Shown piece after piece: positions 1 to 28,121 of a DNA stretch of 37,524 nt. A program made the translations under genes and the position numbers. This DNA comes from a virus (Duplodnaviria; Heunggongvirae; Uroviricota; Caudoviricetes). Within the stretch, counting starts at the first letter, position 1; every line of letters starts with the position of its first letter. Location of the stretch: IMG/VR virus record IMGVR_UViG_2718217884_000001, positions 1-37,524 of that record; one strand, 5' to 3'. Below the pieces are notes generated by a model. The model saw nothing but the letters and a program-made list of their open reading frames with translations, did not search any database and was not told the DNA's origin.

Positions 1-267
1 ATGAAACGCATGCCCGAAAATGAAACAGGCTTCTGGGCAAGTCTGATAGCCTGGCTGTTCAGCCACAAAACAGAGTGGGGATATGCGGGTGTGGCGGGCA
101 TGTTCTCTCTGCTGCGCAGCGCCTATGCCCAGTCCTCATGGAGTAAACGTATTCTCGACGCCGTATCGTGCAGCGCCCTGGCATTCTTCGCCGCGCCGAC
201 GCTTCAGGTAATTGGTGGCGTACTTAACTGGAATGTCCCTGATGCTGCCGCCCAGGTATTTGCGGTG
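1..267 (+). pseudogene. Lambda S-like (class I) holin, 3' end replaced by IS1
   Basis: ORF 1..348 begins with a dual-start MKxM motif and has hydrophobic segments like lambda S; from nt 268 the frame reads into the IS1 left end (GGTAATGACTCCAACTTA...), so the native C-terminus is missing. Confidence 0.5.
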
Positions 268-282
268 GGTAATGACTCCAAC

Positions 283-786
283 TTACTGATAGTGTTTTAT
301 GTTCAGATAATGCCCGATGACCTTGTCATGCAGCTCCACCGATTTTGAGAACGACAGTGACTTCCGTCCCAGCCTTGCCAGATGTTGTCTCAGATTCAGG
401 TTATGTCGCTCAATGCGCTGAGTGTAACGCTTGCTGATAACGTGCAGCTTTCCCTTCAGGCGTGATTCGTACAGCGGCCAGCCATCCGTCATCCATACCA
501 CGACCTCAAAGGCCGACAGCAGGCTCAGAAGACGCTCCAGTGTGGCCAGAGTGCGTTCACCGAAGACGTGCGCCACAACCGTCCTCCGTATCCTGTCATA
601 CGCGTAAAACAGCCAGCGCTGACGTGATTTAGCACCGACGTAGCCCCACTGTTCGTCCATTTCAGCGCAGACAATCACATCACTGCCCGGTTGTATGCGC
701 GAGGTTACCGACTGCGGCCTGAGTTTTTTAAGTGACGTAAAACCGTGTTGAGGCCAACGCCCATAATGCGTGCACTGGCGCGACAT
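283..786 (-). CDS. insB: IS1 InsB (transposase produced as InsAB' by frameshift)
   Basis: 167-aa translation ...[58 protein letters not shown]... matches IS1 InsB; overlaps the insA 3' end as in IS1. Confidence 0.9.
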
Positions 787-980
787 CCGACGCCATTCAT
801 GGCCATATCAATGATTTTCTGGTGCGTACCGGGCTGAGAGGCGGTGTAAGTGAACTGTAGTTGCCATGTTTTACGGCAATGAGAGCAGAGATAGCGCTGA
901 TGTCCGGCAGTGCTTTTGCCGTTACGCACCACGCCTTCAGTAGCGGAGCAGGAAGGACATCTGATGGAAATGGAAGCCAC
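705..980 (-). CDS. insA: IS1 InsA
   Basis: 91-aa translation [43 protein letters not shown]... matches IS1 InsA as I recall it. Confidence 0.92.
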
Positions 981-1035
981 GCAAGCACCTTAAAATCACC
1001 ATCATACACTAAATCAGTAAGTTGGCAGCATTACC

Positions 1036-2092
1036 GAAATCCTTGCTCATTGAGAGCTGTACTTGCGATAGAACGCAAGCCATGAGAAACGAGAACACCT
1101 CCTAACCCAGCACGCTTGAGTGCTGCATTCACTGTTTGGCTGTTCATTGGCTGGGTTGGTTTGATGCGACTGGGAAAGATAAATTCTCGACCACCACTGA
1201 GGGACTTCATCATTTCCAGAATTGAGATAGCCTCATCCGATAGTGGAACCGTATGGTCTCGGTTCATCTTCATTCGAGCTGCTGGAATTTTCCATTCTTT
1301 AGCATTGAAATCGATCTCATCCCATCGTGCCTCAGCAGCTTCGGCAGGGCGGGTAATGGTGAGAAGCTGCCACATGAACAGACACCGCGTGGACACACTG
1401 ATACTTGCCGTACGCATTGTTTGCATTAACTGTGGAAGTTGATCCGGGCGGATACTTGGCATGTTTTTCTTCTGCGGTTTCTCGAATGCTTTCCCGATAT
1501 TTACACTGGGAACTGCATCAATCAGGCCTGTGTTCTGTGCATAAATCATGACTTCATTAATACGCTGACAAAGGCGGCGAACAGTCTCTAATGCCCCCCT
1601 AGCCTGAACCGGCTGAACTGCTTTAACCAGAGTATGAGCCTTAATCTCAGTGACACTGATATCACCGATTGCTGGAAAAATATCTCTCTCAAGTGAGCGC
1701 CAGATATCGTCAGCATAGTCCTCTGTTACGCTGGCTTTCCTCACATTCCACCAACGCTCAGCAACTAACAAGAAGGTATTAGTTTTGGCCTCTTGAGAAT
1801 TTCTCACCTGTTCTTTCTGATGTTCCTGAGGATCAATGTCTTTCGCCAATAAAACTTTAGATTCGGCTCTGAGTTTACGTGCATCAGAAAGCGAGACGGC
1901 AGGGTAGGCACCGAAGCTCTGTTTGGTTCGCTGCTTGGTCAGAGGCCGATAGTAACGGAATTGCCAGAGCTTACTTCCACTGGATTTGATTAACAGAGTA
2001 AGTCCGTCACCATCATACAACTGGTAATCGGCATCTTTAGGTTTAGCGGCTTTGATTTCCGTATCGGTTAACGGCTTTGTTTTTCTTGCCAT
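1036..2092 (-). pseudogene. intA: CP4-57/P4-type tyrosine integrase (IntA-like), C-terminally truncated by IS1
   Basis: Translation from ATG at 2092 (MARKTKPLTDTEIKAAKPKDADYQLYDGDGLTLLIKSSGSKLWQFRYYRP...) is typical of P4-family integrases; GGAG Shine-Dalgarno 8 nt upstream; ORF ends ...HGLRSIASTALNEQGF at the IS1 boundary, so the catalytic Tyr region is missing. Confidence 0.85.
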
Positions 2093-2293: not shown

Positions 2294-2340
2294 TTTGGTG
2301 GAGCTGGCGGGAGTTGAACCCGCGTCCGAAATTCCTACAT
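2294..2340 (-). repeat. attL core: 47-bp direct repeat containing the last 45 nt of ssrA
   Basis: TTTGGTGGAGCTGGCGGGAGTTGAACCCGCGTCCGAAATTCCTACAT is identical to 36463..36509 inside the intact ssrA; sequence diverges immediately after CAT. Confidence 0.9.
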
Positions 2341-2457
2341 ACCATTTTTAGCCTAATAAAAACATACATTTACTTTTAAAATCATCACGTTATTGTTTTT
2401 TGTATTTGTCGGGTTTTATGTGATTTTAAGTCTGTGCCGCCAAAGTGCCGCCATAAA

Positions 2458-3483
2458 TTAACGGTTCCAGTTGAGATTGTGAAGCGGGTTTTTTGTCACT
2501 GCATCTTCCAGGTGGTCGGGTGCGAAGTGGGCGTAAATCATTGTCATTTTAATATCGGCGTGGCCCAGAATATCGCGCAGTACCAGTATATTTCCGCCGT
2601 TCATCATAAAATGACTGGCGAAAGTATGGCGCAGAACGTGGGTGCATTGGCCCTCTGGCAAGTCAATGCTTGCCCGCTTGACTGCACGCTCAAAGGCTTT
2701 TCTGCATGGCGTGAATAACTTCCCTCGGTTCTTTGGTAACTCGTCATACAGCGCCTGAGATATAGGAACCGTTCGGTTTTTCTTGCCCTTTGTTTTGGTG
2801 TAGGTGATTCGGTATTTAGATAACTGATGGCCCTGCAGGTTTTCGGCTTCACTCCAGCGGGCGCCGGTAGCTAAGCAGATTTTTGCAATCATGAGCAGGC
2901 TGGGGTTTTCTGAATCAGCGCAGGCATCCAGCAGGCGTTTAATTTCTTCCGGCGCCAGGAACGCCAGTTCCCCCTCTGCGATTTTAAATGTTGGAAGCCC
3001 GGCGAGTGGGTTGGGGGCTGACCAGTGGCCCAGCTTTTTCAGCGTGCCAAAAACTGATGATAGGTTGCGTTGTTCAAGGTTTACCGTGCGGGGCTTAACT
3101 GGCGACATAGGCAAGCCATCTTCATTTTTGACTTCACCTTTTAGGCGTGCTTCACGGTATTTTGTAAAGTCACCGGCAGTCAGCTCCGAGGCAATGGGAT
3201 CACCCAGGCCATTACAAATAATGTTAAGTTTTGCCATCAGGCGCTTGGGGTCAGCAAGAGTCTGTCCGTAAAGTGAATGCCACTGCTTAATTACTTCTGA
3301 CAATTGGCGCCGATCATCCTTTTCGCCTAGCCATGGCTTTTTGTTCACTTCATCCATTGTGAAGTTTTCGAATGCTATGGCCTCGCCTTTCGTCGCAAAT
3401 TGCTTGCGCACGCGCTTGCCATCGCGCCCGCTAGGGTAGCACTCACACAACCATTTCCCGTTTGGCTGTTTTCTGATGGTCAT
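2458..3483 (-). CDS. int: Phage integrase (tyrosine recombinase, P2/186 Int family)
   Basis: 341 aa; C-terminal motifs HVLRHTFAS and MIYAHF (catalytic His/Arg/Tyr region); adjacent to attL; followed by GTGCCGCC direct repeats. Confidence 0.88.
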   Translation of the reverse strand: MTIRKQPNGKWLCECYPSGRDGKRVRKQFATKGEAIAFENFTMDEVNKKPWLGEKDDRRQLSEVIKQWHSLYGQTLADPKRLMAKLNIICNGLGDPIASELTAGDFTKYREARLKGEVKNEDGLPMSPVKPRTVNLEQRNLSSVFGTLKKLGHWSAPNPLAGLPTFKIAEGELAFLAPEEIKRLLDACADSENPSLLMIAKICLATGARWSEAENLQGHQLSKYRITYTKTKGKKNRTVPISQALYDELPKNRGKLFTPCRKAFERAVKRASIDLPEGQCTHVLRHTFASHFMMNGGNILVLRDILGHADIKMTMIYAHFAPDHLEDAVTKNPLHNLNWNR

Positions 3484-3484
3484 A

Positions 3485-4117
3485 TCAAAGGCTCTTAATA
3501 ACTTTTAAGACGTGGCCTACAACCTCGATATCATCCAGGCTGCACTCAAAAGATGATTCATCTTGATGAACTACCAATCTGTTTCCGGGGATACGGGTTA
3601 ACTTCACAATACTTTTTATTCCATCAATATCGACCAACCACACCCCATTTACTGGTGGTGTTTGGCTGCGATCCACTAGGTATGAATCACCACCGGTATT
3701 TACTAAGAGTAAGTTACTGGAATTGGAAGGAAGCAAGCTGCTGTCAATGATTGCTTTACCTGTATCCACCAAAGAGCCGCTAGAAAGTGTCACTTTGTCA
3801 ATTTCGGGAGAAACAAGGTCAGAAAGGTGTTTAACTTTGCCGGAGTTCACGAAATTGATATCTTTTTGCATGTCAATGTTTGAACCCGGCTCGCCTTGCC
3901 CTGTGGTAAGCCAGAGTAAAGAAACGCCTGTCTCAAGAGCGCACTGAATTACCCATTCTGCAGGGAAACTATCTCTTAAGTATCTGTTTGCCATGGTGCT
4001 TTTAGATGCGCCAAGATGGTCGCACAATTGCTGTCTTGATTTGAAATCGTAGGCTGCCATTAGCCTATGGATGGCCTCTCTACCCCCGGTGTTCTCGCCT
4101 GTCTTTACTTGTATCAT
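3485..4117 (-). CDS. cI: CI-like immunity repressor (N-terminal HTH, C-terminal S24-like domain)
   Basis: 210 aa, divergent from apl/cII operon, position between int and the lytic operon as in 186. Confidence 0.7.
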   Translation of the reverse strand: MIQVKTGENTGGREAIHRLMAAYDFKSRQQLCDHLGASKSTMANRYLRDSFPAEWVIQCALETGVSLLWLTTGQGEPGSNIDMQKDINFVNSGKVKHLSDLVSPEIDKVTLSSGSLVDTGKAIIDSSLLPSNSSNLLLVNTGGDSYLVDRSQTPPVNGVWLVDIDGIKSIVKLTRIPGNRLVVHQDESSFECSLDDIEVVGHVLKVIKSL

Positions 4118-4236
4118 TTTTTAATCCTATTGACGTATCAAATATTGGATCGTAGTATCTTTTCGTATCAACTCTTGAATCGTATAAAACAAGATAAAAC
4201 GACGTAAACCAAACCTTAACCGAGAGATACTGCACT
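4118..4236. promoter_or_regulatory. Lysis-lysogeny switch region with divergent promoters and repeated operator-like motifs
   Basis: Between divergent cI (-) and apl-like (+); four spaced copies of a (A)TCGTAT-containing motif (TTGACGTATCA 4129.., TTGGATCGTAGTAT 4145.., TTCGTATCA 4162.., TTGAATCGTATA 4175..); candidate -35/-10 TTGACG-18-TAGTAT. Confidence 0.5.
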
Positions 4237-4485
4237 ATGAGCACTGATATTTCAATTCGTGTACCAAAAGTGATAGCGACGCCAGCCGAGTTTGCTAAGT
4301 GGGAAGGGTATTCCCGTGGTTCTGTTTATCAGATGATTCATAACGGTAAATTGGCTAACTACATTGAAAAGAAAGAAAAAAACAAAGGCCGCGTATTCAT
4401 CCTTTACCTCAAGTACAAAAAAGACCAAGCAAGCAAAAACATGGACAAGTCTGCATTCAATTACAACGTTGTAGTTGGTTGTTAA
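4237..4485 (+). CDS. Apl/Cox-like excisionase and transcriptional regulator
   Basis: 82-aa basic protein, first gene of the rightward operon opposite cI, position as 186 apl / P2 cox. Confidence 0.5.
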   Translation: MSTDISIRVPKVIATPAEFAKWEGYSRGSVYQMIHNGKLANYIEKKEKNKGRVFILYLKYKKDQASKNMDKSAFNYNVVVGC

Positions 4486-4517
4486 GTTCAATTATGTGAA
4501 CTTTTGAGGTATGAAAC

Positions 4518-5027
4518 ATGTTTGATTATAAGATTTCCAAACATCCGCATTTTGATGAAGCCTGCCGGGCTTTCTCGCTGCGTCACAACATGGCGAAGCT
4601 GGCAGAACGCGCAGGAATGAATGTCCAGACGCTGCGCAACAAGCTGAACCCGGAGCAACCGCATCAACTTACCCCGCCGGAGATCTGGCTGCTGACTGAT
4701 ATCACAGAAGACTCAACGCTGGTTGACGGTTTTCTGGCTCAAATCCATTGCCTGCCGTGCGTGCCATTGAATGAAGTGGCAAAAGAGAAGCTGCCGCATT
4801 ACGTCATGAGAGCTACTGCTGAAATCGGACGTGTTGCTGCCGGTGCCGTATCGGGTGATGTGAAAACCACCGCAGGCCGCCGCGATGTTATCAGCAGCAT
4901 TAACTCTGTTACTCGTCTGATGGCACTGGCTGCCGTTTCGATGCAGGCGCGTTTACAGGCTAACCCGGCGATGGCAAGCGCGGTGGATACCGTGACGGGC
5001 CTCGGCGCTTCGTTTGGTCTGATCTGA
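4518..5027 (+). CDS. cII: 186 CII-like lysogeny establishment activator
   Basis: 169 aa; MFDYKISKHPHFDEACRAFSLRHNMAKLAERAGMNVQTLRNKLNPEQPH... resembles phage 186 CII; GAGGT RBS. Confidence 0.75.
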   Translation: MFDYKISKHPHFDEACRAFSLRHNMAKLAERAGMNVQTLRNKLNPEQPHQLTPPEIWLLTDITEDSTLVDGFLAQIHCLPCVPLNEVAKEKLPHYVMRATAEIGRVAAGAVSGDVKTTAGRRDVISSINSVTRLMALAAVSMQARLQANPAMASAVDTVTGLGASFGLI

Positions 5028-5034
5028 GGTGGTT

Positions 5035-5235
5035 ATGCTGACTAAAGAACCCTCTTTTGCGTCACTTCTCATAAAGCAAAGCCCGGCAATGCACTACGGT
5101 CACGGCTGGATCATGGGGAAGGATGGCAAACGCTGGCACCCGTGCCGCTCTCAGGATGAACTGCTGGCTGACCTGTCCACAACCAAACAGGGGAAATCAT
5201 GGCTATTGAAGGCGCTGCAGCGACTGTCCCATTAA
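5035..5235 (+). CDS. Small early protein (Fil-like by position)
   Basis: ATG at 5035 preceded by GAGGTGG; ORF track lists 5029 (GTG); follows cII as fil does in 186. Confidence 0.4.
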   Translation: MLTKEPSFASLLIKQSPAMHYGHGWIMGKDGKRWHPCRSQDELLADLSTTKQGKSWLLKALQRLSH

Positions 5236-5540
5236 GCCCCGGTAAAAGGCTGGACGCATTGAATCATATTGCGGAATTGAGAGCTAAAGTGTTTGGCCTG
5301 AATATTGAGCCGGAGCTTGAAAGGTTTATTAAAGATATGCGCGATCCACGCGACGTAAATAATAAACAGAATGAGCGGGCACTGGCAGCCATTTTTTATA
5401 TGGCAAAAATTCCGGCAGAACGTCACGGCGTCAATATTAGTGATCTGACTACTGACGAAAAGCGGGAACTGGTGAAAGCAATGAATCATTTTCGTGCAGT
5501 GGTGAGCTTATTTCCCAAACGGCTAACCATGCCGAATTAA
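5199..5540 (+). CDS. Hypothetical early-operon protein
   Basis: 113-aa ORF in the early operon, overlaps previous stop; no family recognised. Confidence 0.5.
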   Translation: MAIEGAAATVPLSPGKRLDALNHIAELRAKVFGLNIEPELERFIKDMRDPRDVNNKQNERALAAIFYMAKIPAERHGVNISDLTTDEKRELVKAMNHFRAVVSLFPKRLTMPN

Positions 5541-5607
5541 TCCACAACAGAAATTAATGGCGTAAACCCGCCGGGCTTCTTATTGCCCAAATTCAGGAGA
5601 AACAACT

Positions 5608-5841
5608 ATGCGAAATATTGAAACCCGTACCACTAAAACCGGACCAGATGATGCTGGTCTCAACCTGTTGCTGACTGAGGCACGCAAAGAAGAACGCCGG
5701 GGACGCGCAGATGTGATGGCTGCGCGTCTGGATTCTTTAGCTGCTCGTATCGTGTCACGTCAGCTTAACCACACGGAAGCGGCTGAGCTGCTGCGTCAGG
5801 AAGCTGTGAAGATTCAGAACGAAGCGCAGGAGATCCACTGA
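5608..5841 (+). CDS. Hypothetical early-operon protein
   Basis: 77-aa ORF with AGGAG RBS; stop overlaps next start. Confidence 0.5.
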   Translation: MRNIETRTTKTGPDDAGLNLLLTEARKEERRGRADVMAARLDSLAARIVSRQLNHTEAAELLRQEAVKIQNEAQEIH

Positions 5842-6068
5842 TGGCTGATTCAATGGACCTTGTACAGCAGCGCGTTGAAGAAGAACGCCCGCGCCATATC
5901 CACACCGCCCGCAATAAAACGCCGGGCGTTTCCCGTGTTCTCTGCATTGATTGCGATGCGCCGATCCCGCCAGCTCGCCGCCGCGCCATTCCGGGCGTGC
6001 AGTGCTGCGTCACTTGTCAGGAAATCGCAGAGCTGAAAGGCAAACACTACAACGGGGGTGCTGTATGA
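5841..6068 (+). CDS. TraR/DksA-type C4 zinc-finger protein
   Basis: 75 aa with CIDC...N17...CVTC four-Cys motif; common upstream of gene A in P2-like phages. Confidence 0.65.
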   Translation: MADSMDLVQQRVEEERPRHIHTARNKTPGVSRVLCIDCDAPIPPARRRAIPGVQCCVTCQEIAELKGKHYNGGAV

Positions 6069-6925
6069 GCACTATTCTGAAATGGGCGGGAAATAAAACC
6101 TCCATCATGCCGGAACTGATTAAGCATCTTCCTGCTGGCACGCGACTGGTTGAACCTTTCGCGGGTTCATGCGCTGTAATGATGGCGACAGACTATCCTC
6201 ATTATCTTGTCGCGGATATTAACCCAGACCTGATAAATCTTTTTAAGCATATTGCATTTGACTGCGAGAAATTTATTTCAAATTCAAAAGGATTCTTTTC
6301 AGGCACAAATAGCGCTGAGTCTTATTACAACATCCGTCAGGATTTTAATCATTCGGCTGAAACCACCGATTTCTGGAAAGCTGTATTTTTCCTTTATCTT
6401 AATCGCCATGGTTATCGTGGGTTGTGCCGCTATAATTTGAGCGGTCATTTTAATGTCCCTTACGGTAATTATAAAAATCCGTATTTTCCTGAAAGTGAAA
6501 TACGCGCTTTTGCAGAAAAGGCTCAACGCGCAACGTTTATCTGTGCCAGCTATGACGAAACACTGGCGCTGCTGCAGGCTGGTGATGTTGTTTATTGTGA
6601 TCCGCCATACGATGGCACATTTAGCGGTTATCACACTGCCGGTTTTACAGAAGACGATCAGTATCATCTGGCGTCTATTCTTGAGCGCCGGTCATCAGAA
6701 GGTCATCCGGTTATCGTGTCCAACAGCGACACGTCCCTGACCCGTTCGCTTTATCGTAATTTTACCCGCCATCGCATCACTGCAAAGCGCAGCATGGGTG
6801 TGGCTGCCGGCGAGAGTAAATCTGCAGCAGAAATCATCGCCACAAAATCAGCTGGCTGGTTTGGTGTCGATTTGGCGTCCGGTCCAGATATCTCGGTGGA
6901 AACTGAGGTGCGGGCGTGGCAGTGA
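6065..6925 (+). CDS. dam: DNA adenine methyltransferase (Dam family, N6-A MTase)
   Basis: [23 protein letters not shown]...FAGSCAVMM (AdoMet motif) and DPPY catalytic motif; ATGA overlap with upstream gene. Confidence 0.85.
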
Positions 6926-9324
6926 GTAAATTCACATTACATAATGCACCAACCACCGGCGGCTCGAATGAGGCCGCCGTGGCCTTTTCATGGAATAACC
7001 CCAAAAAAGCGGTTAACCCATATCTGGACCCGGCGGAAGTTGCGCCGGGGTCTGCGCTTTCAAACCTGATTGCTCTTTACGCTGCGGATAACGAGCAGGA
7101 GCAGCTGCGCCGTGAGGCGCTGAGCGATGAGGTCTGGGAACGCTATTTCTTCAATGAATCCCGTGATCCTGTCCAGCGCGAAATGGAGCAGGACCGGCTG
7201 ATTAGTCGTGCCAAAATGGCGCGCGAGCAGCAGCGTTTTAATCCCGATCTGGTCATTCTGGCTGACGTTAACGCCATGCCGTCCCATATCAGCAAGCCTC
7301 TGCTGGAGCGGATTAAATATTTCCATAGCCTGGGCAGAGCAAAAGCCTATTCCCGCTACCTGCGCGAAACAATTAGGCCCTGTCTTGAGCGGCTGGAGCG
7401 CGTGCGTGACAGTCAGGTGTCTGCCTCTTTCCGGTTCATGGCAAGTCATGACGGGCTGGAGGGGCTGCTGGTACTGCCTGAAATGAATCAGGATCAGGTC
7501 AAGCGTCTTTCCACGCTGGTTGCGGCTCATATGAGCATGTGTCTTGATGCGGCCTGCGGTGATCTGTTTGTCAGCGACGATGTTAAACCAGAAGAAATCC
7601 GCCAGGCATGGGAAAGGGTTGCAGCAGAGGCGATGCGCCTTGAGATCATCCCGCCTGCGTTTGAGCAGTTACGCCGCAAAAAGCGTCGACGCAAGCCGGT
7701 GCCCTATGAACTGATCCCACCGTCGCTGGCGCGGATGCTGTGCGCGGACTGGTGGTATCGCAAATTGTGGCAGATGCGCTGCGAGTGGCGGGAGGAACAG
7801 CTGCGTGCTGTCTGCCTGGTCAACAAAAAAGCGTCCCCGTATGTCAGCTATGAAGCCGTGATCCACAAGCGCGAGCAGCGCCGCAAATCGCTGGAGTTCT
7901 TCCGCTCACATGAGCTGGTCAACGAAGACGGTGACACGCTGGACATGGAAGACGTGGTGAACGCCAGTAACAGCAACCCGGCACACCGCCGTAATGAAAT
8001 GATGGCCTGTGTTAAGGGACTGGAGCTGATAGCGGAAATGCGCGGAGACTGCGCAGTGTTCTATACCATCACCTGCCCGTCACGCTTCCACGCAACCCTC
8101 AACAACGGCAGACCTAATCCGAAGTGGACCAGTGCCACAGTCCGGCAGAGCAGTGACTATCTGGTTGATACGTTCGCCGCTTTCCGCAAGGCAATGCACA
8201 AGGCCGGGCTGCGCTGGTATGGCGTCCGCGTTGCGGAGCCGCACCATGACGGCACAGTGCACTGGCATCTGTTGTGCTTCATGCGCAAAAAAGACCGCCG
8301 TTTCATCACTGCGATGCTGCGCAAGTTTGCCATCCGTGAAGACCGCGAGGAGCTGGGCACCAACACCGGGCCGCGCTTCAAATCCGAGCTAATCAACCCG
8401 CGCAAGGGCACGCCGACCAGCTACATCGCCAAATACATCAGCAAGAACATCGACGGGCGTGGGCTGGCTAAAGAAATCAGCAAAGAAACCGGCAGATCGC
8501 TGCGTGACAGTGCCGAGCATGTCAGCGCCTGGGCGTCACTGCACCGTGTCCAGCAATTTCGTTTCTTTGGTATTCCAGGGCGTCAGGCATACCGCGAGCT
8601 GCGCTTGCTGGCTGGTCAGGTGGCGAGAGTGCAGGGCGAACGCAAAGCGGGTGCGCCGGTACTGGATAATCCGCGTCTGGATGCGGTACTGGCGGCGGCT
8701 GATGCGGGCTGCTTTGCCACCTACATCATGAAGCAGGGCGGCGTGCTGGTTCCCCGCAAACATCACCTTGTCCGCACGGCTTATGAGCTTAACGACGAAC
8801 CGAGCGCCTACGGCGATCACGGTATCCGTATCTATGGCATCTGGTCCCCGATTGCAGAGGGCAAGATTTGCACGCACGCGGTGAAGTGGAAAAAGGTTCG
8901 TAAGGCCGTTGATGTTCAGGAGGCGGCAGCCGACCAGGGCGCTTGCGCCCCTTGGACTCGTGGCAATAACTGTCCCCCTGTTGAAAATCTGAACAAATCA
9001 GGGGGGGATTTACCCGATATTAAAACTATGGATGAGAGGGAGCTGCAGGAATATCTCCACAACATGGGCCAGAAGGAACGGCGGGAGCTGACAGCCAGGT
9101 TAAGGCTGGTAAAACCGAAGCGGAAAAAAGCATATAAACAGACTATTTCGGATCAGCAGCGCCTGCAGCTTGAGGCAGAACTGAGTTCCAGAGGGTTCGA
9201 TGGTAGCGAGTCAGAGATTGACCTGCTTCTGCGCGGCGGCAGTATTCCGTCAGGTGCCGGGCTGCGTATTTTTTACCGCAACCACCGTCTGCAGGAAGAT
9301 GACAAATGGCGTCAGTGGTACTGA
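6916..9324 (+). CDS. A: Replication initiation endonuclease (P2 gpA family, rolling circle)
   Basis: 802 aa, GTG start overlapping dam stop; contains conserved segment around HxH and tyrosine-containing YIAKYISK characteristic of gpA. Confidence 0.88.
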
Positions 9325-9420
9325 TGCCGCAGCTTTAACAATTCTTGCTCTTATTGATCCGCATCAGAGCGATCTAATTGACAGATAAAAAACGGTTTAC
9401 ATTCGCAAATTCCTACTATA

Positions 9421-9436
9421 CTGTAATTATAAACAG
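9421..9436 (+). promoter_or_regulatory. LexA (SOS) box overlapping promoter -10
   Basis: CTGTAATTATAAACAG is a perfect CTGT-N8-ACAG; -35 TTTACA (9396..9401) and -10 TATACT (9417..9422); a second degenerate half-box at 9437..9452. Confidence 0.7.
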
Positions 9437-9485
9437 TGGATATATATACAGTTGTTGTATATCCGAGGTGGTGATAGGAGGGAAA

Positions 9486-9674
9486 ATGCAGGATTATCTT
9501 TTGGAGTCGTTGAAGCTCCAGCGCATTGATTTTTTTATCAAGCTTGTAGCGGCTAGTGAGTGTAGCGACGAAGAAAAGCGGCTGGCTATCCAGTGGGTGT
9601 CCGAACTGACCGACGAGCTGATGGCGAAAATCCGCAGCCATGAATACTGCCGGTCAATGGATGTAACCAGTTAA
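9486..9674 (+). CDS. Small SOS-controlled protein (candidate antirepressor, Tum-position)
   Basis: 62 aa from ATG 9486 with GGAGGG RBS; directly downstream of LexA box; the longer 9378 start would precede the promoter. Confidence 0.5.
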   Translation: MQDYLLESLKLQRIDFFIKLVAASECSDEEKRLAIQWVSELTDELMAKIRSHEYCRSMDVTS

Positions 9675-9685
9675 GGGGAATCTGT

Positions 9686-9919
9686 ATGCGCATTGAAATA
9701 ATGATCGATAAAGAGCAGAAGATTAGCCAGGCTACACTGGACGCCCTTGAATCCGAGCTTTACCGTAATTTGCGCCCTCTGTATCCCAAAACAGCAATTC
9801 GTATCCGTAAGGGCAGCGCCAACGGCGTTGAGCTGAGCGGGTTAAAACTGGATGAAGATAAAAAGCGAGTGATGGAAATAATGCAGCAGGTCTGGGAGGA
9901 CGACAGCTGGTTACATTAG
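9686..9919 (+). CDS. DinI-family protein
   Basis: 77 aa; MRIEIMIDKEQKISQATLDALESELYRNLRPLYP...EIMQQVWEDDSWL aligns with DinI by eye. Confidence 0.75.
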   Translation: MRIEIMIDKEQKISQATLDALESELYRNLRPLYPKTAIRIRKGSANGVELSGLKLDEDKKRVMEIMQQVWEDDSWLH

Positions 9920-10052
9920 CGAACGTTGCGGACGATAAAACTGGTTTTTACCGTCCGCAAGGTTGAACAACGAGCCACGCGAGGCGTTAGCGCTGTTGTG
10001 CATGTCTATGCCGCATGAAATCGCATGATCGTTTGAGGATCGTTTTTGCTCA

Positions 10053-10078
10053 GGCCCGCCAGAACTGGCGGGCTTTTG
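10053..10078 (+). terminator. Rho-independent terminator after SOS operon
   Basis: GCCCGCCAG-AACT-GGCGGGC hairpin followed by TTTTGCTT. Confidence 0.55.
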
Positions 10079-10122
10079 CTTATGTCATGCAGGTGCATGA
10101 AAACCACTACACAAAGCGGGCA

Positions 10123-10141
10123 GGCGTGGCGGGGATACGAG
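10123..10141. other. Candidate cos (cohesive end) site
   Basis: GGCGTGGCGGGGATACGAG; first 13 nt identical to my recollection of the 186 cohesive end GGCGTGGCGGGGAAAGCAT; position near Q 3' end. Confidence 0.35.
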
Positions 10142-10240
10142 CGCGCGCTGGTTGGTTTGGGACAGCTTTCAAGAGCTATGTCTCATTTTTGCTTGGACGG
10201 ATAGATTACTCTACTCAAAACATGTGAAATGGAGATAAAC

Positions 10241-10423
10241 ATGCCGTATCAAGTTAAAGCTTATTGTCCTTGTTGTGGGGTCGCTGCAAGTGGTGATCTG
10301 AACAAAATTGAAGAGGTATTTGGTTTTAGAATGATGGAAGGGGAACGTTTGATTCCACAATCATATTGTCGCAGATGTCGTCGATTAAGATGTTCTCCAA
10401 ATGATAAAAAGTGCGGAGCATAA
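10241..10423 (+). CDS. Cys-rich zinc-ribbon protein, unknown function
   Basis: 60 aa from ATG 10241 (GGAG 6 nt upstream); CPCCG...CRRCRRLRC; AT-rich codons; 3-nt gap to next gene. Confidence 0.55.
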   Translation: MPYQVKAYCPCCGVAASGDLNKIEEVFGFRMMEGERLIPQSYCRRCRRLRCSPNDKKCGA

Positions 10424-10426
10424 AAG

Positions 10427-10696
10427 ATGGCGGTCTATTGTGTAACGTATGACTTGAAAGCTCCAGGCAAGAACTATGATGATGTTTTTACCTATCTCAA
10501 AAAGTTTGACTACTGCAAACATTTAGAATCCTTTTGGTTAATCGATACCACGCTTTCTGCAGCGCAATTGCGTGATGGACTTAAAGCAAATGTTGATAGT
10601 AACGATGTGATCTTTGTTGCTCGTTTACAAAAATCTTGGGCCTCATTAAATTATTCTTGTTCTACATGGTTAAAGGCTCCTGGTCGAAATTGGTAA
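10427..10696 (+). CDS. 89-aa protein of unknown function, co-operonic with zinc-ribbon ORF
   Basis: GGAG RBS; N-terminal beta-strand-like VYCVTYDL; AT-rich; followed by terminator hairpin. Confidence 0.55.
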   Translation: MAVYCVTYDLKAPGKNYDDVFTYLKKFDYCKHLESFWLIDTTLSAAQLRDGLKANVDSNDVIFVARLQKSWASLNYSCSTWLKAPGRNW

Positions 10697-10703
10697 ATAA
10701 ATT

Positions 10704-10730
10704 AAGGCCGCATGATTAGCGGCCTGTTTG
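10704..10730. terminator. Bidirectional terminator hairpin between small cassette and Q
   Basis: GGCCGC-ATGATTA-GCGGCC with T-rich tracts on both strands. Confidence 0.5.
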
Positions 10731-10758
10731 AATATTGTTGTTGATGAGTAGGTGATTA

Positions 10759-11805
10759 CTATTCATCACCTAAATTTAACTTGTAGGGTTCAAAGCGTAT
10801 TACATCTTCTTGTAACCAATCATTGAGTTCTTGCAGCCTTTTTTGGAGGGGGATTAGTTCGTTTCTTACAAAAACAAGGCTGGCCTTTTCCACATCCCCA
10901 AAACCCCCAACATTGCTTGGCATGATCCCCATCATCTGTGGCGGCACACGGTGCGCTGCCATCATGTCATCGCGGCTCACGTTCTTGATGTTCAGAAACT
11001 CATCCTTTGCTGCTACCTCTGATAGTGGGATTATCTGAATGCCGTCCTTCTTCCCGTTGGGCGAATACATAAACAGGTTGCGGAAGTTGCCTGGCCCTTT
11101 GGCGCTTTTCATGGCCTGGCGGATGTTGTTCACGTCCTCCTGGTTCTGCGCGGCGTCGGTCATGTACATGATAAAGCCCGCGTGGCTGCCGTTGATGTAG
11201 TACTTGCGGCGGAACAGCGTGGCGGACTCATTCAGAAGGGCGGAAGGGATAGCGGACAGGTATTCTGGTAGTCCATAAATCTCCTGGTTTAAGTCCGGCT
11301 CCATCAGGTGGAAGATGCTGCCTTTGGTGAACTCGTAGGGCTGCGTGGTCATGCCGTATTGCACAAACCAGTAAGTGTCGAGGTCGGTCCCGCGGCGGGT
11401 GTATTTCGCCAGCGATGGCTCCAGTGACAGAATGCCGCCCAGCCGGTTCGTCCGTTTCTCCAGATAGGCATTACCAAACACCAGGTAGTCCTGCACGAAG
11501 CGGCTGAATGCCTGCTGGCTCAGCAGCGGATGCGGGATAAACGTGCTGGTCAGGATGTTGCGCTTAACGGCAATCGGTGAGCTGTGATGCACGGCGGCGC
11601 GGTAGGTGCGAGCCAGGCCGTCAAAGCTCACGGGCGGCTCATACCATTTGTCCATCTGCACGCATTCCACATAGTCCAGCAGTTCGCGGCGGTCCAGTAC
11701 CGGGATAGGATCGCCAAAGCTGAATGCTTCGGCTTGAGTTGTGTTCTTCTGCTGCGCGGCTTCCTGTACTGGCGCGGTACTGGTCAGGGCGTCGTGTTCA
11801 CTCAT
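10759..11805 (-). CDS. Q: Portal protein (P2 gpQ)
   Basis: 348 aa; position and size match P2 Q; start overlaps P stop. Confidence 0.88.
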   Translation of the reverse strand: MSEHDALTSTAPVQEAAQQKNTTQAEAFSFGDPIPVLDRRELLDYVECVQMDKWYEPPVSFDGLARTYRAAVHHSSPIAVKRNILTSTFIPHPLLSQQAFSRFVQDYLVFGNAYLEKRTNRLGGILSLEPSLAKYTRRGTDLDTYWFVQYGMTTQPYEFTKGSIFHLMEPDLNQEIYGLPEYLSAIPSALLNESATLFRRKYYINGSHAGFIMYMTDAAQNQEDVNNIRQAMKSAKGPGNFRNLFMYSPNGKKDGIQIIPLSEVAAKDEFLNIKNVSRDDMMAAHRVPPQMMGIMPSNVGGFGDVEKASLVFVRNELIPLQKRLQELNDWLQEDVIRFEPYKLNLGDE

Positions 11806-13571
11806 TAAAAAATCTCCACAATATTGCTGGTATTGGCGGATTCGCCCTGCAGCGGTTCGTTAAACAGTGCGTGCATCGTTGCCCAGGCCAAATCTGCGTG
11901 GCTGGCTTCTTCGCTGCGGCTCGCTTCGTAGGTAGGGCGGTTGCCGCTGGCGGTAGTGGCACGGCGGATTGCCATAAAGGACTGCGCAATGTCAGTGTGC
12001 CCGGCGTCAAACTCCAGACGACGGTGGCTGATAATGTCGTACGCTTTGAGCACCAGGGCGTTTTTGACGTTGGGGTTGTAGACAAACTCCCGCACGGCAG
12101 GAAAGAACGCTTTTACGTTCTCATAAACACCGTGACCGACGCCGGTCGAGTCGATGCCGATATAAGTCACGTTGTACTGCTGCGTCAGCTTTTTGATGGC
12201 ATCAGCCTGGGCGCGGAAGTCCATCCCGCGCCACTGATGACGCTCCAGAATGCGGAACTTTCCGCCAGGTACAGTGGGTGGTGCCATAACCACGCAGCCT
12301 GCGCTGTCACCGTTCTGCGTACCTTTCGCTGGGTCGTAACCGATCCAGACTTCCCGCCAGCCAAACGGGCGCAGCGCCAGCGCCTGAAAATCGGTCCAGA
12401 CTTCCCAGCTGTCCACCATGCACGCCTGCAGCTCGCTGAGCGGGAATACTGACGCCAGATCGTCAATAAATTCGCACATCAGCAGGTTCTGGTATTCGTC
12501 CGGGCTGTACTCCATGCGCAGTTGGTCCAGGTCGAACAGGTTACAGCCTCCGCGCACCGCATCCTCCACGGTGACGATCTGGCGGTACTGTCCGTCAGGG
12601 CAGAGCAGGCCGCGCGCAAGGTTGCTGTGGGTCAGGTCAATATCCACCTTGTCCGCTTTGGCGCGGCCCCGATTAAACAGCGCACCGGACCAGAACGGAT
12701 AGGCACTGTGAGTCAGGCTGGACGGCGTGGAAAAGTAGGTTTGTCGCCATTTTTTGTGAATGGCCATCCCGGAGGCCACCTTGCGCAGCTCCTGGAATTT
12801 CGGTATCCAGAAATACTCATCAAGATACAGGTTGCCGTGGTAGCTCTGCGCAGTACGGGCATTGGTGCCGAGGAAGTACAAAGCTGCGCCATTGGGCAGC
12901 ACCATGGGATCGCCTTTCAGCTCAACATCCACCTCTTTGGCAAAGTCGATGATGTACTGCTTAAAAACGTGCGCCTGCGCCTTACTGGCAGAAAGGAAAA
13001 TCTGGTTGCGCCCGGTCAGCAGGGCGTCAATCAATGCTTCACGGGCAAAATAAAACGTGGCGCCAATCTGGCGCGACTTGAGCAGATTACGGATGCGGTT
13101 TGTTTTTCCGGCTTCAAACCAGTGACGCTGATAGTCGAACATTGAGGCATGGAAGACTTCTTCCAGCTTTTCGATCTGTTCGTCGGAGAAAACGTTCTTT
13201 TCCGGCTGCCTGCGCGGACCTTTGTTACGGTTGTCTACTTTCGGGTTTAAATCTGCTTCGTTCCCGCCGTCGTTAAATTTTCCGATCCGGGCGTGACGCT
13301 CTGACTGGCGCGCCAGCAGGTCAATTTCCTTGAAGTCTTTCCCTTCTTTCTGCTCCTTCATGATGAGCTGGCAGTAACGTGCGGCGGTGGTGAGCTGCAT
13401 CTGATCCAGCGGCCCATAGTCGCCCCACTTGTCGCGCTTCTTCCAGCTGTGAACGGTTGCAACTTTTTCGCCCAGCATTTCAGCAATGCGGGCTACGCGG
13501 TATCCCTGAAAGTACAGCAGCATGGCCTGCCGACGGGGATCGAGGTCTGCGGGGGTCAGTGTCGTGTTCAT
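11805..13571 (-). CDS. P: Terminase large (ATPase) subunit (P2 gpP)
   Basis: 588 aa; upstream of Q on same strand as in P2. Confidence 0.88.
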   Translation of the reverse strand: MNTTLTPADLDPRRQAMLLYFQGYRVARIAEMLGEKVATVHSWKKRDKWGDYGPLDQMQLTTAARYCQLIMKEQKEGKDFKEIDLLARQSERHARIGKFNDGGNEADLNPKVDNRNKGPRRQPEKNVFSDEQIEKLEEVFHASMFDYQRHWFEAGKTNRIRNLLKSRQIGATFYFAREALIDALLTGRNQIFLSASKAQAHVFKQYIIDFAKEVDVELKGDPMVLPNGAALYFLGTNARTAQSYHGNLYLDEYFWIPKFQELRKVASGMAIHKKWRQTYFSTPSSLTHSAYPFWSGALFNRGRAKADKVDIDLTHSNLARGLLCPDGQYRQIVTVEDAVRGGCNLFDLDQLRMEYSPDEYQNLLMCEFIDDLASVFPLSELQACMVDSWEVWTDFQALALRPFGWREVWIGYDPAKGTQNGDSAGCVVMAPPTVPGGKFRILERHQWRGMDFRAQADAIKKLTQQYNVTYIGIDSTGVGHGVYENVKAFFPAVREFVYNPNVKNALVLKAYDIISHRRLEFDAGHTDIAQSFMAIRRATTASGNRPTYEASRSEEASHADLAWATMHALFNEPLQGESANTSNIVEIF

Positions 13572-13617
13572 GGCCCAAACATACGGCCTTGGATGGCGGC
13601 TTTCCCCGGCTGCAGTT

Positions 13618-13635
13618 TGTGTGGTTTACCGTACA
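13618..13635. promoter_or_regulatory. Candidate Ogr-dependent late promoter element (TGT-N12-ACA) in P/O divergent region
   Basis: TGTGTGGTTTACCGTACA; centre about 55 bp upstream of a plausible O-operon start and of the P start. Confidence 0.45.
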
Positions 13636-13713
13636 AATACAGCGCGTTGTCTCACTCCCCCCATCACCGCAAACATAAGGCTCCAGTAAGTTATTTCTAA
13701 CGGAGCACGGCTC

Positions 13714-14547
13714 ATGACAGTGAAAGCAAAACGTTTCCGTATCGGGGTGGAAGGCGCCACTACCGACGGACGCGAAATCCAGCGTGAATGGCTGGTACAG
13801 ATGGCTGCCAGCTACAATCCGACGGTCTATACCGCGCTGATCAACATGGAACACATCAAGTCTTATTCCCCGGACAGTGCATTCAACCGTTACGGCAAAG
13901 TGACTGCGCTGGTTGCAGAAGAAATCCAGGACGGTCCGCTGGCGGGCAAGATGGCACTTTACGCCGATGTTGAACCGACGGACTCCCTGGTGGCCCTAGT
14001 GAAAAAAGGCCAGAAGCTGTTTACCTCCATGGAGGTCAGCCCGAAGTTTGCCGACACCGGCAAAGCCTATCTTGTGGGGCTGGCGGCAACAGACGATCCG
14101 GCGAGTCTCGGCACCGAAATGCTGGTATTCAGCGCCAGCGCCGCCCATAACCCGCTGGCAAACCGTAAGCAGAACCCTGAAAACCTGTTTACCGCTGCCG
14201 AAGAAACGCAGATCGAACTGGAAGAAGCCCAGGACGAAAAGCCATCCCTCTTTGCCCGCGTCACCGCGCTGTTCACCAAAAAAGAGCAGACCGACGATGC
14301 GCGATTCTCTGATGTGCATAAAGCCGTGGAACTGGTCGCCACCGAGCAGCAGAACCTGAGCGAACGCACTGATAAATCCCTGTCAGAACAGGACAAGCGC
14401 CTTTCTGAGCTGGAGTCCTCCCTGCAGGAACAACAGGCCGCCTTTGCCGAGTTACAGCAGCAGCTGAGCCGTGAAGACAGCCGCAAGGATTACCGCCAGC
14501 GCGCGCCGGGCGGTGACGCACTGGCAGGCACCCTGACCAATTGCTGA
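13714..14547 (+). CDS. O: Capsid scaffolding protein (P2 gpO)
   Basis: 277 aa, acidic coiled-coil C-terminal half; first gene of rightward late operon. Confidence 0.85.
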   Translation: MTVKAKRFRIGVEGATTDGREIQREWLVQMAASYNPTVYTALINMEHIKSYSPDSAFNRYGKVTALVAEEIQDGPLAGKMALYADVEPTDSLVALVKKGQKLFTSMEVSPKFADTGKAYLVGLAATDDPASLGTEMLVFSASAAHNPLANRKQNPENLFTAAEETQIELEEAQDEKPSLFARVTALFTKKEQTDDARFSDVHKAVELVATEQQNLSERTDKSLSEQDKRLSELESSLQEQQAAFAELQQQLSREDSRKDYRQRAPGGDALAGTLTNC

Positions 14548-14563
14548 TGGAGCATAAAACCCG

Positions 14564-15631
14564 ATGAAAAAGAAAACCCGCTTTGCCTTTAACGCTTACC
14601 TGCAGCAACTGGCGCGCCTGAACGGTGTGGAGGTTGAAGAACTGTCCAGCAAGTTTACCGTGGAGCCGTCCGTGCAGCAGACGCTGGAAGACCAGATCCA
14701 GCAGTCCGCCGCTTTCCTGACGCTGATTAACATCACGCCGGTCACTGAGCAGTCCGGTCAGTTGCTGGGGCTGGGCGTGGGAAGCACCATTGCCGGAACC
14801 ACCGATACCACCACCAAAGAGCGCGAGCCTACCGATCCGACGCTGATGGAAGATGTGGAATACAAATGCGAGCAGACCAACTTTGATACGGTGCTGACCT
14901 ACGCAAAACTGGACATGTGGGCGAAATTCCAGGACTTCCAGGTGCGTATTCGCAACGCCATCGTCAAGCGTCAGGCGCTGGACCGCATCATGATCGGCTT
15001 TAACGGCGTGAAGCGCGCCAAAACCTCCAACCGTGCTGAAAACCCGCTGCTGCAGGACGTCAATAAAGGCTGGCTGCAGAAAATCCGCGAAGACGCGCCG
15101 GATCACGTCATGGGCAGCAAAACCGCAGAAGACGGCACCACTACTGCAGAACCGGTAAAAGTAGGTCCGGGTGGTAAGTATGTAAATCTTGACGCGGTGG
15201 TGATGGATACCGTCAACGAGCTGATCGATGTGGAGTATCAGGATGATGACGAGCTGGTTGTTGTCTGCGGACGTGAACTGCTGTCTGACAAGTATTTCCC
15301 GCTGGTCAACAAAGAGCAGGACAACAGCGAGAAAATCGCCGCCGATCTGATCATCAGCCAGAAACGCATGGGCGGCCTGCAGGCTGTGCGCGCGCCTTTC
15401 TTCCCGGCAAATGCCCTGCTGATCACCCGTCTGGATAACCTGTCCATCTACTGGCAGGAAGACACCCGCCGCCGTTCAGTTATCGACAACCCGAAACGTG
15501 ACCGGATTGAAAACTTTGAATCCGTCAACGAGGCGTATGTGGTCGAGGACTACCGCTGCGCGGCGCTGGTTGAAAACATCGAAATCGGTGATTTCACCCC
15601 GCCTGCAGTAGAAACAGGAAACGGAGAGTAA
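14564..15631 (+). CDS. N: Major capsid protein (P2 gpN)
   Basis: 355 aa; MKKKTRFAFNAYLQQLARLNGV... close to P2 N. Confidence 0.9.
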   Translation: MKKKTRFAFNAYLQQLARLNGVEVEELSSKFTVEPSVQQTLEDQIQQSAAFLTLINITPVTEQSGQLLGLGVGSTIAGTTDTTTKEREPTDPTLMEDVEYKCEQTNFDTVLTYAKLDMWAKFQDFQVRIRNAIVKRQALDRIMIGFNGVKRAKTSNRAENPLLQDVNKGWLQKIREDAPDHVMGSKTAEDGTTTAEPVKVGPGGKYVNLDAVVMDTVNELIDVEYQDDDELVVVCGRELLSDKYFPLVNKEQDNSEKIAADLIISQKRMGGLQAVRAPFFPANALLITRLDNLSIYWQEDTRRRSVIDNPKRDRIENFESVNEAYVVEDYRCAALVENIEIGDFTPPAVETGNGE

Positions 15632-15634
15632 CGC

Positions 15635-16285
15635 ATGAGCCTGAGTCCCGCACGGCAACACCGCCTGCGCATTCAGGCCGAACAGGCCGCCCGTGAGGGC
15701 GGCAGTGTTCGCCATGCGTCGGGTTATGACCTGATGCTGCTGCAGCTGGCAGAAGACCGCCGCCGCCTCAAGGGCGTTCAGTCCACGGTGAAAAAGGCGG
15801 AAATCAAGGTGGAACTGCTGCCGAAATATTCCGCCTGGGCGGAGGGCGTGCTGGCTGCCGGAGGTGCGCAGCAGGATGACGTGCTGATGTACGTGATGCT
15901 GTGGCGTATCGACGCCGGTGATTATGCCGGTGCGCTGGAAATCGGACGCCATGCACTGCTCCATGGCTGGGTGATGCCGCTGGGCAACCGTAACGTGCAG
16001 ACCGTGCTGGCAGAAGAAATGGCAGACGCGGCGCAAAGCGCTCTGCTTACCGCTGCCGGTTTTGATGCTGATCTGCTTCTGCAGACGCTGGACCTGACCA
16101 CCGATCTTGATATGCCGGACCAGTCGCGGGCGCGCCTGCATAAAGCCATCGGCGCTGTACTGAGCGAAAGCAACCCGGCGTCTGCCCTGAATCACCTTAC
16201 CCATGCGCTGCAGCTTGATCCCCGCTGCGGTGTGAAAAAAGAAAAGCAGCAGCTGGAGCGCAGACTGCGCAATGACAGCCGCTAA
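15635..16285 (+). CDS. M: Terminase small/endonuclease subunit (P2 gpM)
   Basis: 216 aa, follows N as in P2. Confidence 0.8.
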   Translation: MSLSPARQHRLRIQAEQAAREGGSVRHASGYDLMLLQLAEDRRRLKGVQSTVKKAEIKVELLPKYSAWAEGVLAAGGAQQDDVLMYVMLWRIDAGDYAGALEIGRHALLHGWVMPLGNRNVQTVLAEEMADAAQSALLTAAGFDADLLLQTLDLTTDLDMPDQSRARLHKAIGAVLSESNPASALNHLTHALQLDPRCGVKKEKQQLERRLRNDSR

Positions 16286-16378
16286 CGAACGTGCCCCGCG
16301 CACGGGCGGCACGGGATGGCGAAAGGCACTGCCACATCAAAATTCCGTCCACCGCCCACTTATTCAGGAGAAAGCCGC

Positions 16379-16843
16379 ATGAAGTTTGTTGCGCCCGAAC
16401 AGGCACCGGAGCAGGCGGAGGTCATCAAAAATACGCCGTTCTGGCCTGATGTGGACCTGTCGGAATTTCGCAGTGTGATGCGAACTGACGGCACGGTGAC
16501 GCAGTCGCGTTTAAAGCAGGTTGTGCTGACGGCTATTTCTGAGGTTAACGCTGAGCTGTACGACTTCCGCAACCGCCAGCAGTTGCTGGGCTACCGGGCA
16601 CTGGCTGAGGTTCCGGCGGACATGCTGGACGGTAAAAGCGAGCGTATCCGGCACTACCATAACGCCGTTTTTTGCTGGACGCGCGCTGTGCTCAATGAGC
16701 GTTATCAGGACTATGACGCCACGGCATCAGGTGTGAAACGGGGGGAGGAGCTGGCGGAGGCCAGCGGCGATCTGTGGCGTGATGCCCGCTGGGCCATCAG
16801 CCGGGTGCAGGATGCGCCGCACTGTACGGTGGAGCTTATCTGA
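16379..16843 (+). CDS. L: Head completion/stabilisation protein (P2 gpL)
   Basis: ATG at 16379 with AGGAG RBS (ORF track extends upstream to 16316); 154 aa. Confidence 0.8.
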   Translation: MKFVAPEQAPEQAEVIKNTPFWPDVDLSEFRSVMRTDGTVTQSRLKQVVLTAISEVNAELYDFRNRQQLLGYRALAEVPADMLDGKSERIRHYHNAVFCWTRAVLNERYQDYDATASGVKRGEELAEASGDLWRDARWAISRVQDAPHCTVELI

Positions 16844-17046: not shown

Positions 17047-17049
17047 ATT

Positions 17050-17758: not shown

Positions 17759-17759
17759 A

Positions 17760-19525: not shown

Positions 19526-19529
19526 TGTA

Positions 19530-19575
19530 TCGTGGTAAAAAATAGTAAAGCCAAATGGCTGGCTAATTGCCAGCC
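19530..19575 (-). terminator. Terminator hairpin between convergent S and ATPase cassette
   Basis: GGCTGGC-TAATT-GCCAGCC (19557..19575) followed on minus strand by T-rich tract. Confidence 0.5.
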
Positions 19576-19581
19576 ATAACT

Positions 19582-28110: not shown

Positions 28111-28121
28111 CCTGAATAAAA

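Follow-up and report, generated by a model that had tools for sequence, protein, structure and literature searches.

The window analysed here is the whole 37,524-nucleotide (nt) stretch of the IMG/VR virus record IMGVR_UViG_2718217884_000001 (positions 1 to 37,524; Caudoviricetes). Its left end contains, in this order: (i) the stump of a lambda-S-family holin gene; (ii) a complete copy of the insertion sequence (IS) IS1; (iii) a truncated integrase gene, intA'; and (iv) a displaced 3' end of ssrA, the gene for transfer-messenger RNA (tmRNA). In all likelihood, one IS1 copy anchors here a deletion scar that formed in at least two steps, and the region is not the outcome of a simple insertion. 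Both junctions of the IS1, a 188-bp difference between the window and sister genomes of Escherichia coli, and the single origin of that difference can be read directly from the genomes compared.

The IS1 copy occupies positions 268..1035 on the minus strand and is complete (768 bp), according to exact end mapping, an inverted-repeat search and Pfam domains. Its two ends are (i) the insA-distal inverted repeat IRR (268-290), which adjoins the holin stump and reads GGTAATGACTCCAACTTACTGAT; and (ii) the insA-proximal inverted repeat IRL (1013-1035), which adjoins intA' and reads GGTAATGCTGCCAACTTACTGAT on the minus strand. These terminal repeats of 23 bp match at 20 of 23 positions, with 0 such pairs expected from dinucleotide-preserving shuffles. 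The insA frame (980..705, minus strand; 91 amino acids, aa) carries PF03811 and PF12759 (Zn_ribbon_InsA, HTH_Tnp_IS1), and the insB' frame (786..283, minus strand) carries PF03400 (DDE_Tnp_IS1; E 1.3e-74). Both frames are intact, and their IS1-family domains have E values from 1e-20 to 1e-74. The motif for -1 frameshifting, TTAAAAAAC (A6C site), is present at window positions 723-731, that is, at IS1 position 305. Thus, in its length (about 768 bp), its imperfect ends of about 23 bp beginning with GGTRATG, its frames, its frameshift site and its domains, the element has the features of the IS1 family. The inverted-repeat search detected no second IS1 copy within the window, and shuffles expect none. 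At the corresponding site, E. coli strain 1008S19 carries an IS1 that shows 100% identity to this one; an IS1A located a few kb away in the 1008S19 genome shows 91%. E. coli genomes commonly contain IS1 copies at least 99% identical to it, the median number of matching places being 11 per genome.

On its left side, the IS1 adjoins what is left of a class I holin gene of the lambda S family, namely its first 89 codons (1..267, plus strand; PF05106). The open reading frame (ORF) list gives here a chimeric ORF of 115 aa (1..348, plus strand), which consists of 89 holin residues and 26 residues derived from the antisense strand of the IS1. The stump matches PF05106 at profile positions 2-67 of 99 (E 8.8e-10; 39.3 bits, with a gathering cut-off of 23.8), while the full-length relative P0002 spans positions 1-99 of 99. 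Full-length relatives have 114-125 aa and, after ...AAAQVFAV, they continue with YIGYVGNDYISEKLRGW... (VFAV/YIGYVGNDYISEKL...). In the chimeric ORF, approximately 28-30 C-terminal residues (YIGYVGNDYISEKLRGW...) have been replaced by IS1-derived sequence, the original gene having had about 117 codons, and the cut falls inside the stretch that aligns to the third hydrophobic segment of the holin. The features of a complete class I holin (three transmembrane segments, a charged C-terminal tail and an adjacent endolysin) are not found together here, and what remains is a gene fragment. The resemblance to lambda S holin cassettes lies in the Pfam match, in a possible dual start (M-K-R-M) at the N-terminus and, in sister loci, in a Q antiterminator gene located upstream. 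By contrast, the gene is here cut in its third hydrophobic stretch, and neither endolysin nor spanin follows; unlike in the loci L014 and L015, there is no lysozyme gene after the stump. In the RefSeq annotation of 1008S19 and N9 (L001 12001-12348), the chimeric ORF is labelled "phage holin family protein", without a pseudogene flag.

On its right side, the IS1 adjoins the intA' pseudogene (2092..1036, minus strand), which retains the first 352 of the 413 codons of a tyrosine integrase of the CP4-57/P4 type, as indicated by Pfam and protein comparison. The Arg and stop codon that end its ORF (1031-1035) are supplied by the IS1, so that the product has 353 aa (352 integrase residues plus the IS1-derived Arg), and the intact allele has 413 aa. 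The domains Arm-DNA-bind_3, Phage_int_M and Phage_integrase are recognizable, but the PF00589 match stops at profile position 145 of 172, whereas that of the intact allele of 1008S19 reaches position 170. The 61 C-terminal residues lost include ...LAHVDKNEVRRAY... (LAH...RRAY). The second histidine and the nucleophilic tyrosine of tyrosine recombinases presumably fall within this lost segment and, in consequence, intA' is predicted to be a dead gene with an incomplete catalytic domain.

Regarding its location, intA' adjoins an ssrA 3' fragment (2294-2340), which lies about 200 bp upstream of its start codon; both domains and location are those of a P4/CP4-57 IntA. The arrangement resembles CP4-57 of E. 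coli K-12 (ssrA-intA) in that a P4-type integrase with the same three-domain architecture is situated right downstream of ssrA and is co-directional with it, and the nucleotide identity to K-12 intA is 91% over the 100-bp stretch compared. It differs from CP4-57 in that the integrase lacks its last 61 residues and the island cargo is gone, an IS1 and a lambdoid remnant being found instead. E. coli 1368KP (L003 13787-16181) also has this intA allele, with 100% identity across the compared part, in a copy that IS30 interrupts near its 3' end. Its neighbours there are different and include an IS3-family fragment and an AAA ATPase gene downstream. Since the 1368KP allele carries IS30 and has other downstream neighbours, intA appears to have been hit independently by different insertion sequences.

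The 9-bp flanks of the IS1 are unrelated: TTTGCGGTG on the left (259-267) and GAAATCCTT on the right (1036-1044) share 1 of 9 bases. A search for a target-site duplication of 5 to 14 bp, in which both boundaries were allowed to move by up to ±3 bp, found none: the highest agreement (57%) was at chance level. A duplication of 8-9 bp is the mark of a simple insertion event and not of the IS element itself. Deletion or recombination accounts for its absence here, and the copy as such is a bona fide member of the IS1 family. It could be argued, as a general possibility with nothing further in its favour, that a simple IS1 insertion took place and that its duplication later decayed by point mutation. 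This is extremely improbable: the flanks are two different convergent genes, each of them truncated (the holin at codon 89, the integrase at codon 352), they agree at 1 of 9 bases and, in sister genomes, the right flank is another sequence, located 188 bp away. On the strength of this 188-bp shift, the decay of a duplication was rejected. An earlier sequence-only reading of this DNA had described an IS1 copy at 268..1035 which lies between unrelated 9-bp flanks and truncates a lambda-S-like holin gene on one side and an intA-like integrase gene on the other. All of this holds: the ends map exactly to 268 and 1035, no matching 8-9-bp repeat is hidden next to them, 89 holin codons remain with a partial PF05106 match, and the integrase is reduced to 352 of 413 codons with its PF00589 match cut short.

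Sister genomes reveal how the right junction came about. The holin DNA was searched against 5,426 complete E. coli genomes, and the allele proved to be rare, being present in two of them (1008S19 and N9), whose complete RefSeq chromosomes correspond to L001 and L002; further loci were taken from a large assembly collection. In 1008S19 and N9, the holin/IS1 junction is identical to that of the window, and a spacer of 3 bp separates the stop codon of an intact 413-aa intA from the other end of the IS1, where the flank is GGATCATCC, again without a duplication. The same holin/IS1 junction, with the GGATCATCC flank after an intact intA, is shared by L001, L002, L004-L007, L009 and L012. The flank GAAATCCTT takes the place of GGATCATCC in the window and in L008, L010, L013 and L016. 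The window aligns to 1008S19 and N9 as 1-1036 and 1036-2340 and, at the junction 1035..1036, it lacks 188 bp present in both (BLAST against L001 and L002, with extraction of the deleted segment). These bases, which abut IRL, correspond to (i) the 3-bp spacer; (ii) the intA stop codon; and (iii) the last 182 nt of the intA coding sequence. Because of a shared G, the breakpoint can be placed only to within 1 bp. Between the window and L001, the IS1 and the holin stump are 100% identical and the other flank is unchanged, which is the pattern of an IS-anchored deletion as far as the 188-bp step is concerned.

In the assembly collection, 169 blocks are indexed with the chimeric holin ORF as an exact protein, and the 10 contexts shown comprise six with an intact 413-aa intA, three with the window's junction and one with an inverted segment; the 353-aa truncated integrase is indexed in 76 blocks. 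At a single-nucleotide polymorphism (SNP) in intA, all 353-aa loci aligned across the site have the window's base and all intact 413-aa loci have the other base. Because this base tracks the state of the gene, the 188-bp loss happened once, in a lineage which already carried the holin::IS1-intA arrangement. The comparison with related genomes that had been proposed along with the sequence-only reading has, in this way, brought to light the same IS1 and holin junction next to an intact intA. The explanation offered there, an IS1-mediated deletion or a recombination between two IS1 copies, gains support from a loss which starts exactly at the IS1 terminus. What has to be amended is the implied single event: the deletion at the IS1 stands, but it took at least two successive steps.

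Two other loci with this IS1 have undergone different changes. In L011 (7403-11035; GCA_051217875.1), the tnpB gene contains another, identical IS1 in the opposite orientation, the tnpB'-fliC-holin' segment between the two copies is inverted, and intA is intact (413 aa). This inversion is direct evidence that recombination between IS1 copies operates at the holin/intA locus. In the metagenome contig L017 (1461-3645), the holin-side end of the IS1, with intA' on its other side, is joined to a qseC/qseB-like two-component system region together with ygiW and mqsRA. Either the IS1 has mediated one more rearrangement in this case, or the contig is a chimera assembled across the repeat.

Such repeats raise the question of whether the window's own junction might be an artefact, with contigs mis-joined across a collapsed IS1 and the flanking genes intact elsewhere. 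IS1 is a high-copy repeat which often breaks or mis-joins short-read assemblies, and L017, which joins the IS1 to the unrelated qseC region, is a possible chimera. Nevertheless, window positions 1-2340 recur at 100% identity in a 4.7-Mb contig (L013/L016) and with one mismatch in a 142-kb contig (L010), and L008, a 4.6-Mb contig, has the same junction and diverges after window position 2318. Besides, the 413-aa variant is present in two complete RefSeq chromosomes, and the holin allele is found nowhere else in the complete E. coli genomes. An artefact is, hence, hardly conceivable and was rejected in view of the identical junction in independent assemblies. Since the junction recurs in independent contigs of 4.6-4.7 Mb, since assemblies of chromosome scale carry it, and since the carriers share one intA SNP, the holin-IS1-intA' junction is a real inherited allele. 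The truncation of the flanking ORFs, which a corrected assembly might have undone, stands.

As for the mechanism, a deletion endpoint at an IS terminus, with the IS kept and the opposite flank untouched, is the signature of either an adjacent deletion or a recombination between direct IS copies. Reportedly, the classic case is that of the IS1-promoted deletions in the gal region described by Reif and Saedler in 1975. In genomes from experimental evolution, a missing duplication usually means an adjacent deletion or IS-IS recombination, and adjacent deletions often begin small and then grow stepwise (PMC11708052). IS1-mediated deletions have been widely reported, with modern examples (PMC11708052; bioRxiv 10.1101/2023.04.03.535367). 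The locus shares with the known IS1 deletions of E. coli, both adjacent and IS1×IS1, that (i) the IS is kept; (ii) one terminus lies at the deleted interval; (iii) there is no duplication; (iv) growth is stepwise from the same end; and (v) the neighbours are truncated. There is no mechanistic difference, although the present case is natural, fixed in a lineage and deduced by comparison rather than watched.

For the 188-bp step, an adjacent deletion catalysed by the transposase, in which the IRL end would have undergone intramolecular transposition into a nearby target, is somewhat favoured, as the alternative would require that a second IS1 was present for a time at a distance of only 188 bp. 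That alternative supposes that both junctions arose through RecA-dependent recombination between two IS1 copies in direct repeat. These would have been simple insertions at first, one in the holin gene and the other near or in intA, both bearing a 9-bp duplication, and no adjacent deletion would be involved at all. Its product would be identical in sequence, IS1 is abundant in the carrier species (see the median given above), and the L011 inversion between two identical IS1 copies demonstrates such recombination at the locus. But the second direct copy 188 bp off would have had to be lost afterwards, and no such intermediate exists among the contigs read. The resident IS1, furthermore, has no mosaicism, being 100% identical in the 413-aa and 353-aa states, a point that says nothing if the second copy descended from the first. 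All in all, an origin of both junctions by IS1×IS1 recombination is a minority possibility.

The larger loss can be outlined with the help of intact relatives. In a Pantoea prophage (L014) whose holin is 86% identical, the gene order is cI-cro-cII-replication-NinG-Q-holin-lysozyme-spanin-...-terminase-portal. To the left of the window's position, the sister E. coli loci have, in order, an IS1A, a helicase fragment, a primase gene, a Q antiterminator gene, an IS605-type tnpB, a flagellin gene and the holin stump. By comparison with the intact relatives, the genes lost are likely to be those for endolysin, spanin, terminase, head and tail. The cargo of a second, intA-bearing element suggests itself as lost too. 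E. coli ETEC1749 contains an intact lambdoid prophage which is bounded on both sides by ssrA 3'-end repeats and has its late genes toward ssrA and its own integrase at the far end, adjoining the displaced ssrA fragment; its orientation and its helicase-primase-Q-holin order match the remnant.

Given that the ETEC1749 prophage has its own integrase at the far end, and that intA is of the P4/CP4-57 type and directly downstream of ssrA, intA is taken as a separate layer. Holin and intA would, then, quite probably derive from two different elements stacked at ssrA, the intA element having entered after the lambdoid phage. A single prophage, from which the deletion removed only the internal late region, would be compatible with the position of both genes in the ssrA-proximal island with nothing else between them, and in some phages the late region does end in an inward-reading int. 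This is rather unlikely in view of the distal integrase of ETEC1749, of an intA which is P4/CP4-57-type, co-directional with ssrA and 91% identical to K-12 intA over 100 bp, and of the same intA allele among unrelated neighbours in 1368KP. The sequence-only reading had proposed that most of a resident island or prophage was removed. Lysozyme, spanin and morphogenesis genes are indeed absent, but two elements rather than one prophage were probably affected, and the removal was not whole: in the sister genomes, the primase and Q antiterminator genes, the IS605-type tnpB, the flagellin gene and the holin stump survive to the left of the window.

The lambdoid element may have been an unusual one for the species. 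The closest full-length holin among 5.8 billion proteins searched, a metagenome protein, is only 90% identical, and the nearest full-length relatives (79-90% identical) come from metagenomes, Pantoea and Erwinia, not from E. coli. In a phage collection, the only relatives of the holin were distant ones of Erwinia and Aeromonas phages, with identities not above 49%. The rarity of the allele in E. coli, together with named full-length relatives from Pantoea and Erwinia, suggests for the original prophage a source other than the usual lambdoid pool of E. coli.

Taken together, the following order of events is proposed: (i) a lambdoid prophage would have integrated into ssrA, with its late genes toward ssrA; (ii) a CP4-57-like element with intA would then have entered the regenerated ssrA; (iii) an IS1 in this array would have given rise to a large deletion which fused holin codon 89 to the position 3 bp beyond the stop codon of intA and took away the remainder of the lysis cassette, the genes for morphogenesis, the inner attachment (att) site and the cargo of the intA element; (iv) a 188-bp deletion from the same IS1 end (IRL) into intA would have taken the segment with the catalytic tyrosine; and (v) in the window's strain, a Fels-2-like phage would have integrated into ssrA, moving the scar 34 kb away from the live tmRNA gene.

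Several points weigh against this account. The first large step and its direction are inferred, with no ancestor found. Adjacent deletion and IS1×IS1 recombination give products identical in sequence, and sequence alone cannot separate them. The ETEC1749 prophage, with an identity of only about 76% in the helicase-primase-Q region and another holin, is a layout model, not an ancestor. Finally, the pre-deletion state (an intact holin of this allele, or an IS1 with a 9-bp duplication) is absent from the genomes and metagenome contigs searched. Both complete E. coli genomes that match the holin are truncated alike. Among complete E. coli, an intA 3' end at least 99% identical occurs only in 1008S19, N9 and, interrupted by IS30, 1368KP, and the primase-Q segment has no close relative beyond 1008S19 and N9. 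Exact-pattern scans retrieved no intact holin past codon 89 in metagenome contigs or contigs of species-representative genomes, and no IS1 with a 9-bp duplication at the holin site or the intA site. Of the undeleted arrangement sought in E. coli, the stage with an intact intA was found and the full pre-deletion stage was not.

The rest of the window provides the context of the scar. A P2-type prophage (Fels-2/SopEPhi/SEN8-like) of about 34.1 kb, apparently complete, spans 2341..36462, as delimited by BLAST-type identity, integrase domains and att repeats. Its integrase gene (3483..2458, minus strand) encodes Int_N and Phage_integrase domains, and a repressor-like ORF lies next to it (4117..3485, minus strand). 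Beyond the prophage, ARAGORN identifies the functional ssrA (36465..36827, minus strand; tag peptide ANDENYALAA). The displaced ssrA 3' end of 47 bp (2294..2340, minus strand), an exact direct repeat of 36463-36509, is the distal att repeat of the prophage and marks the original ssrA/intA junction. Over 76-78% of window positions 2341-27000, the prophage has 89-91% nucleotide identity to Yersinia phage MLG42, SopEPhi, SEN8 and Fels-2. It shares with the Fels-2/SopEPhi P2-type prophages the integration into ssrA, the 47-bp ssrA 3'-end repeat and this 89-91% identity over about 77% of the stretch tested; it differs in being here only context, outside the scar.

The ssrA-proximal slot differs among other carriers of the scar: it may be empty or hold P4-like satellites, a phage whose integrase is of the lambda type, or a different island. 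Elements of at least four further kinds have been observed in the slot (L004 and L009 12900-20348; L008, L019-L024; L025), among them P4-like satellites with Psu, Ogr/Delta and primase genes, a phage whose integrase has an Arm-DNA-bind_2 domain, and an island that encodes DUF6387, AlpA and additional integrases. As scar carriers differ in the occupant of this slot, the scar is the older layer. The window's prophage appears to have integrated into ssrA, between the live tmRNA gene and intA', after the scar had formed, and the ssrA att site to have been serially reused.

Between the Q antiterminator gene and the holin stump of the sister loci (L001 9405-11550; also L004-L013), a gene for a 356-aa flagellin of the FliC/FljB family and an IS605-type tnpB lie on the opposite strand. 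The gap between Q and holin is a "moron" slot, which in Stx phages is occupied by the stx genes. The flagellin gene could be a non-fliC flagellin locus of the flk/fll/flm/fln kind (a kind mentioned in PMC7018530).

On the whole, the feature is an ordinary, already-understood scar of prophage decay made of known parts, a textbook IS1-associated deletion. It offers a clean natural example of the stepwise, IS1-anchored erosion of mobile elements stacked at the ssrA hotspot, with little reach beyond bookkeeping. The remnant should be able neither to lyse the cell nor to excise itself by means of its own integrase. In the assembly collection, the 115-aa chimera and the 353-aa integrase are called as complete, ordinary genes, although neither is expected to function as labelled: a small annotation error, but one that propagates. 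It is most improbable that the deletions locked a useful cargo (the flagellin in the Q-holin slot) into the chromosome, that the 115-aa chimera or read-out from the IS1 gained a role, and that the remnant is kept by selection. If this were true, ssrA would stay open to the serial capture of new phages while a cargo remnant is retained by selection in the carrier lineage. In any case, the order of layers from the tmRNA gene outward (ssrA, Fels-2-like prophage, intA', IS1, holin') provides a relative chronology, which could help in strain typing.

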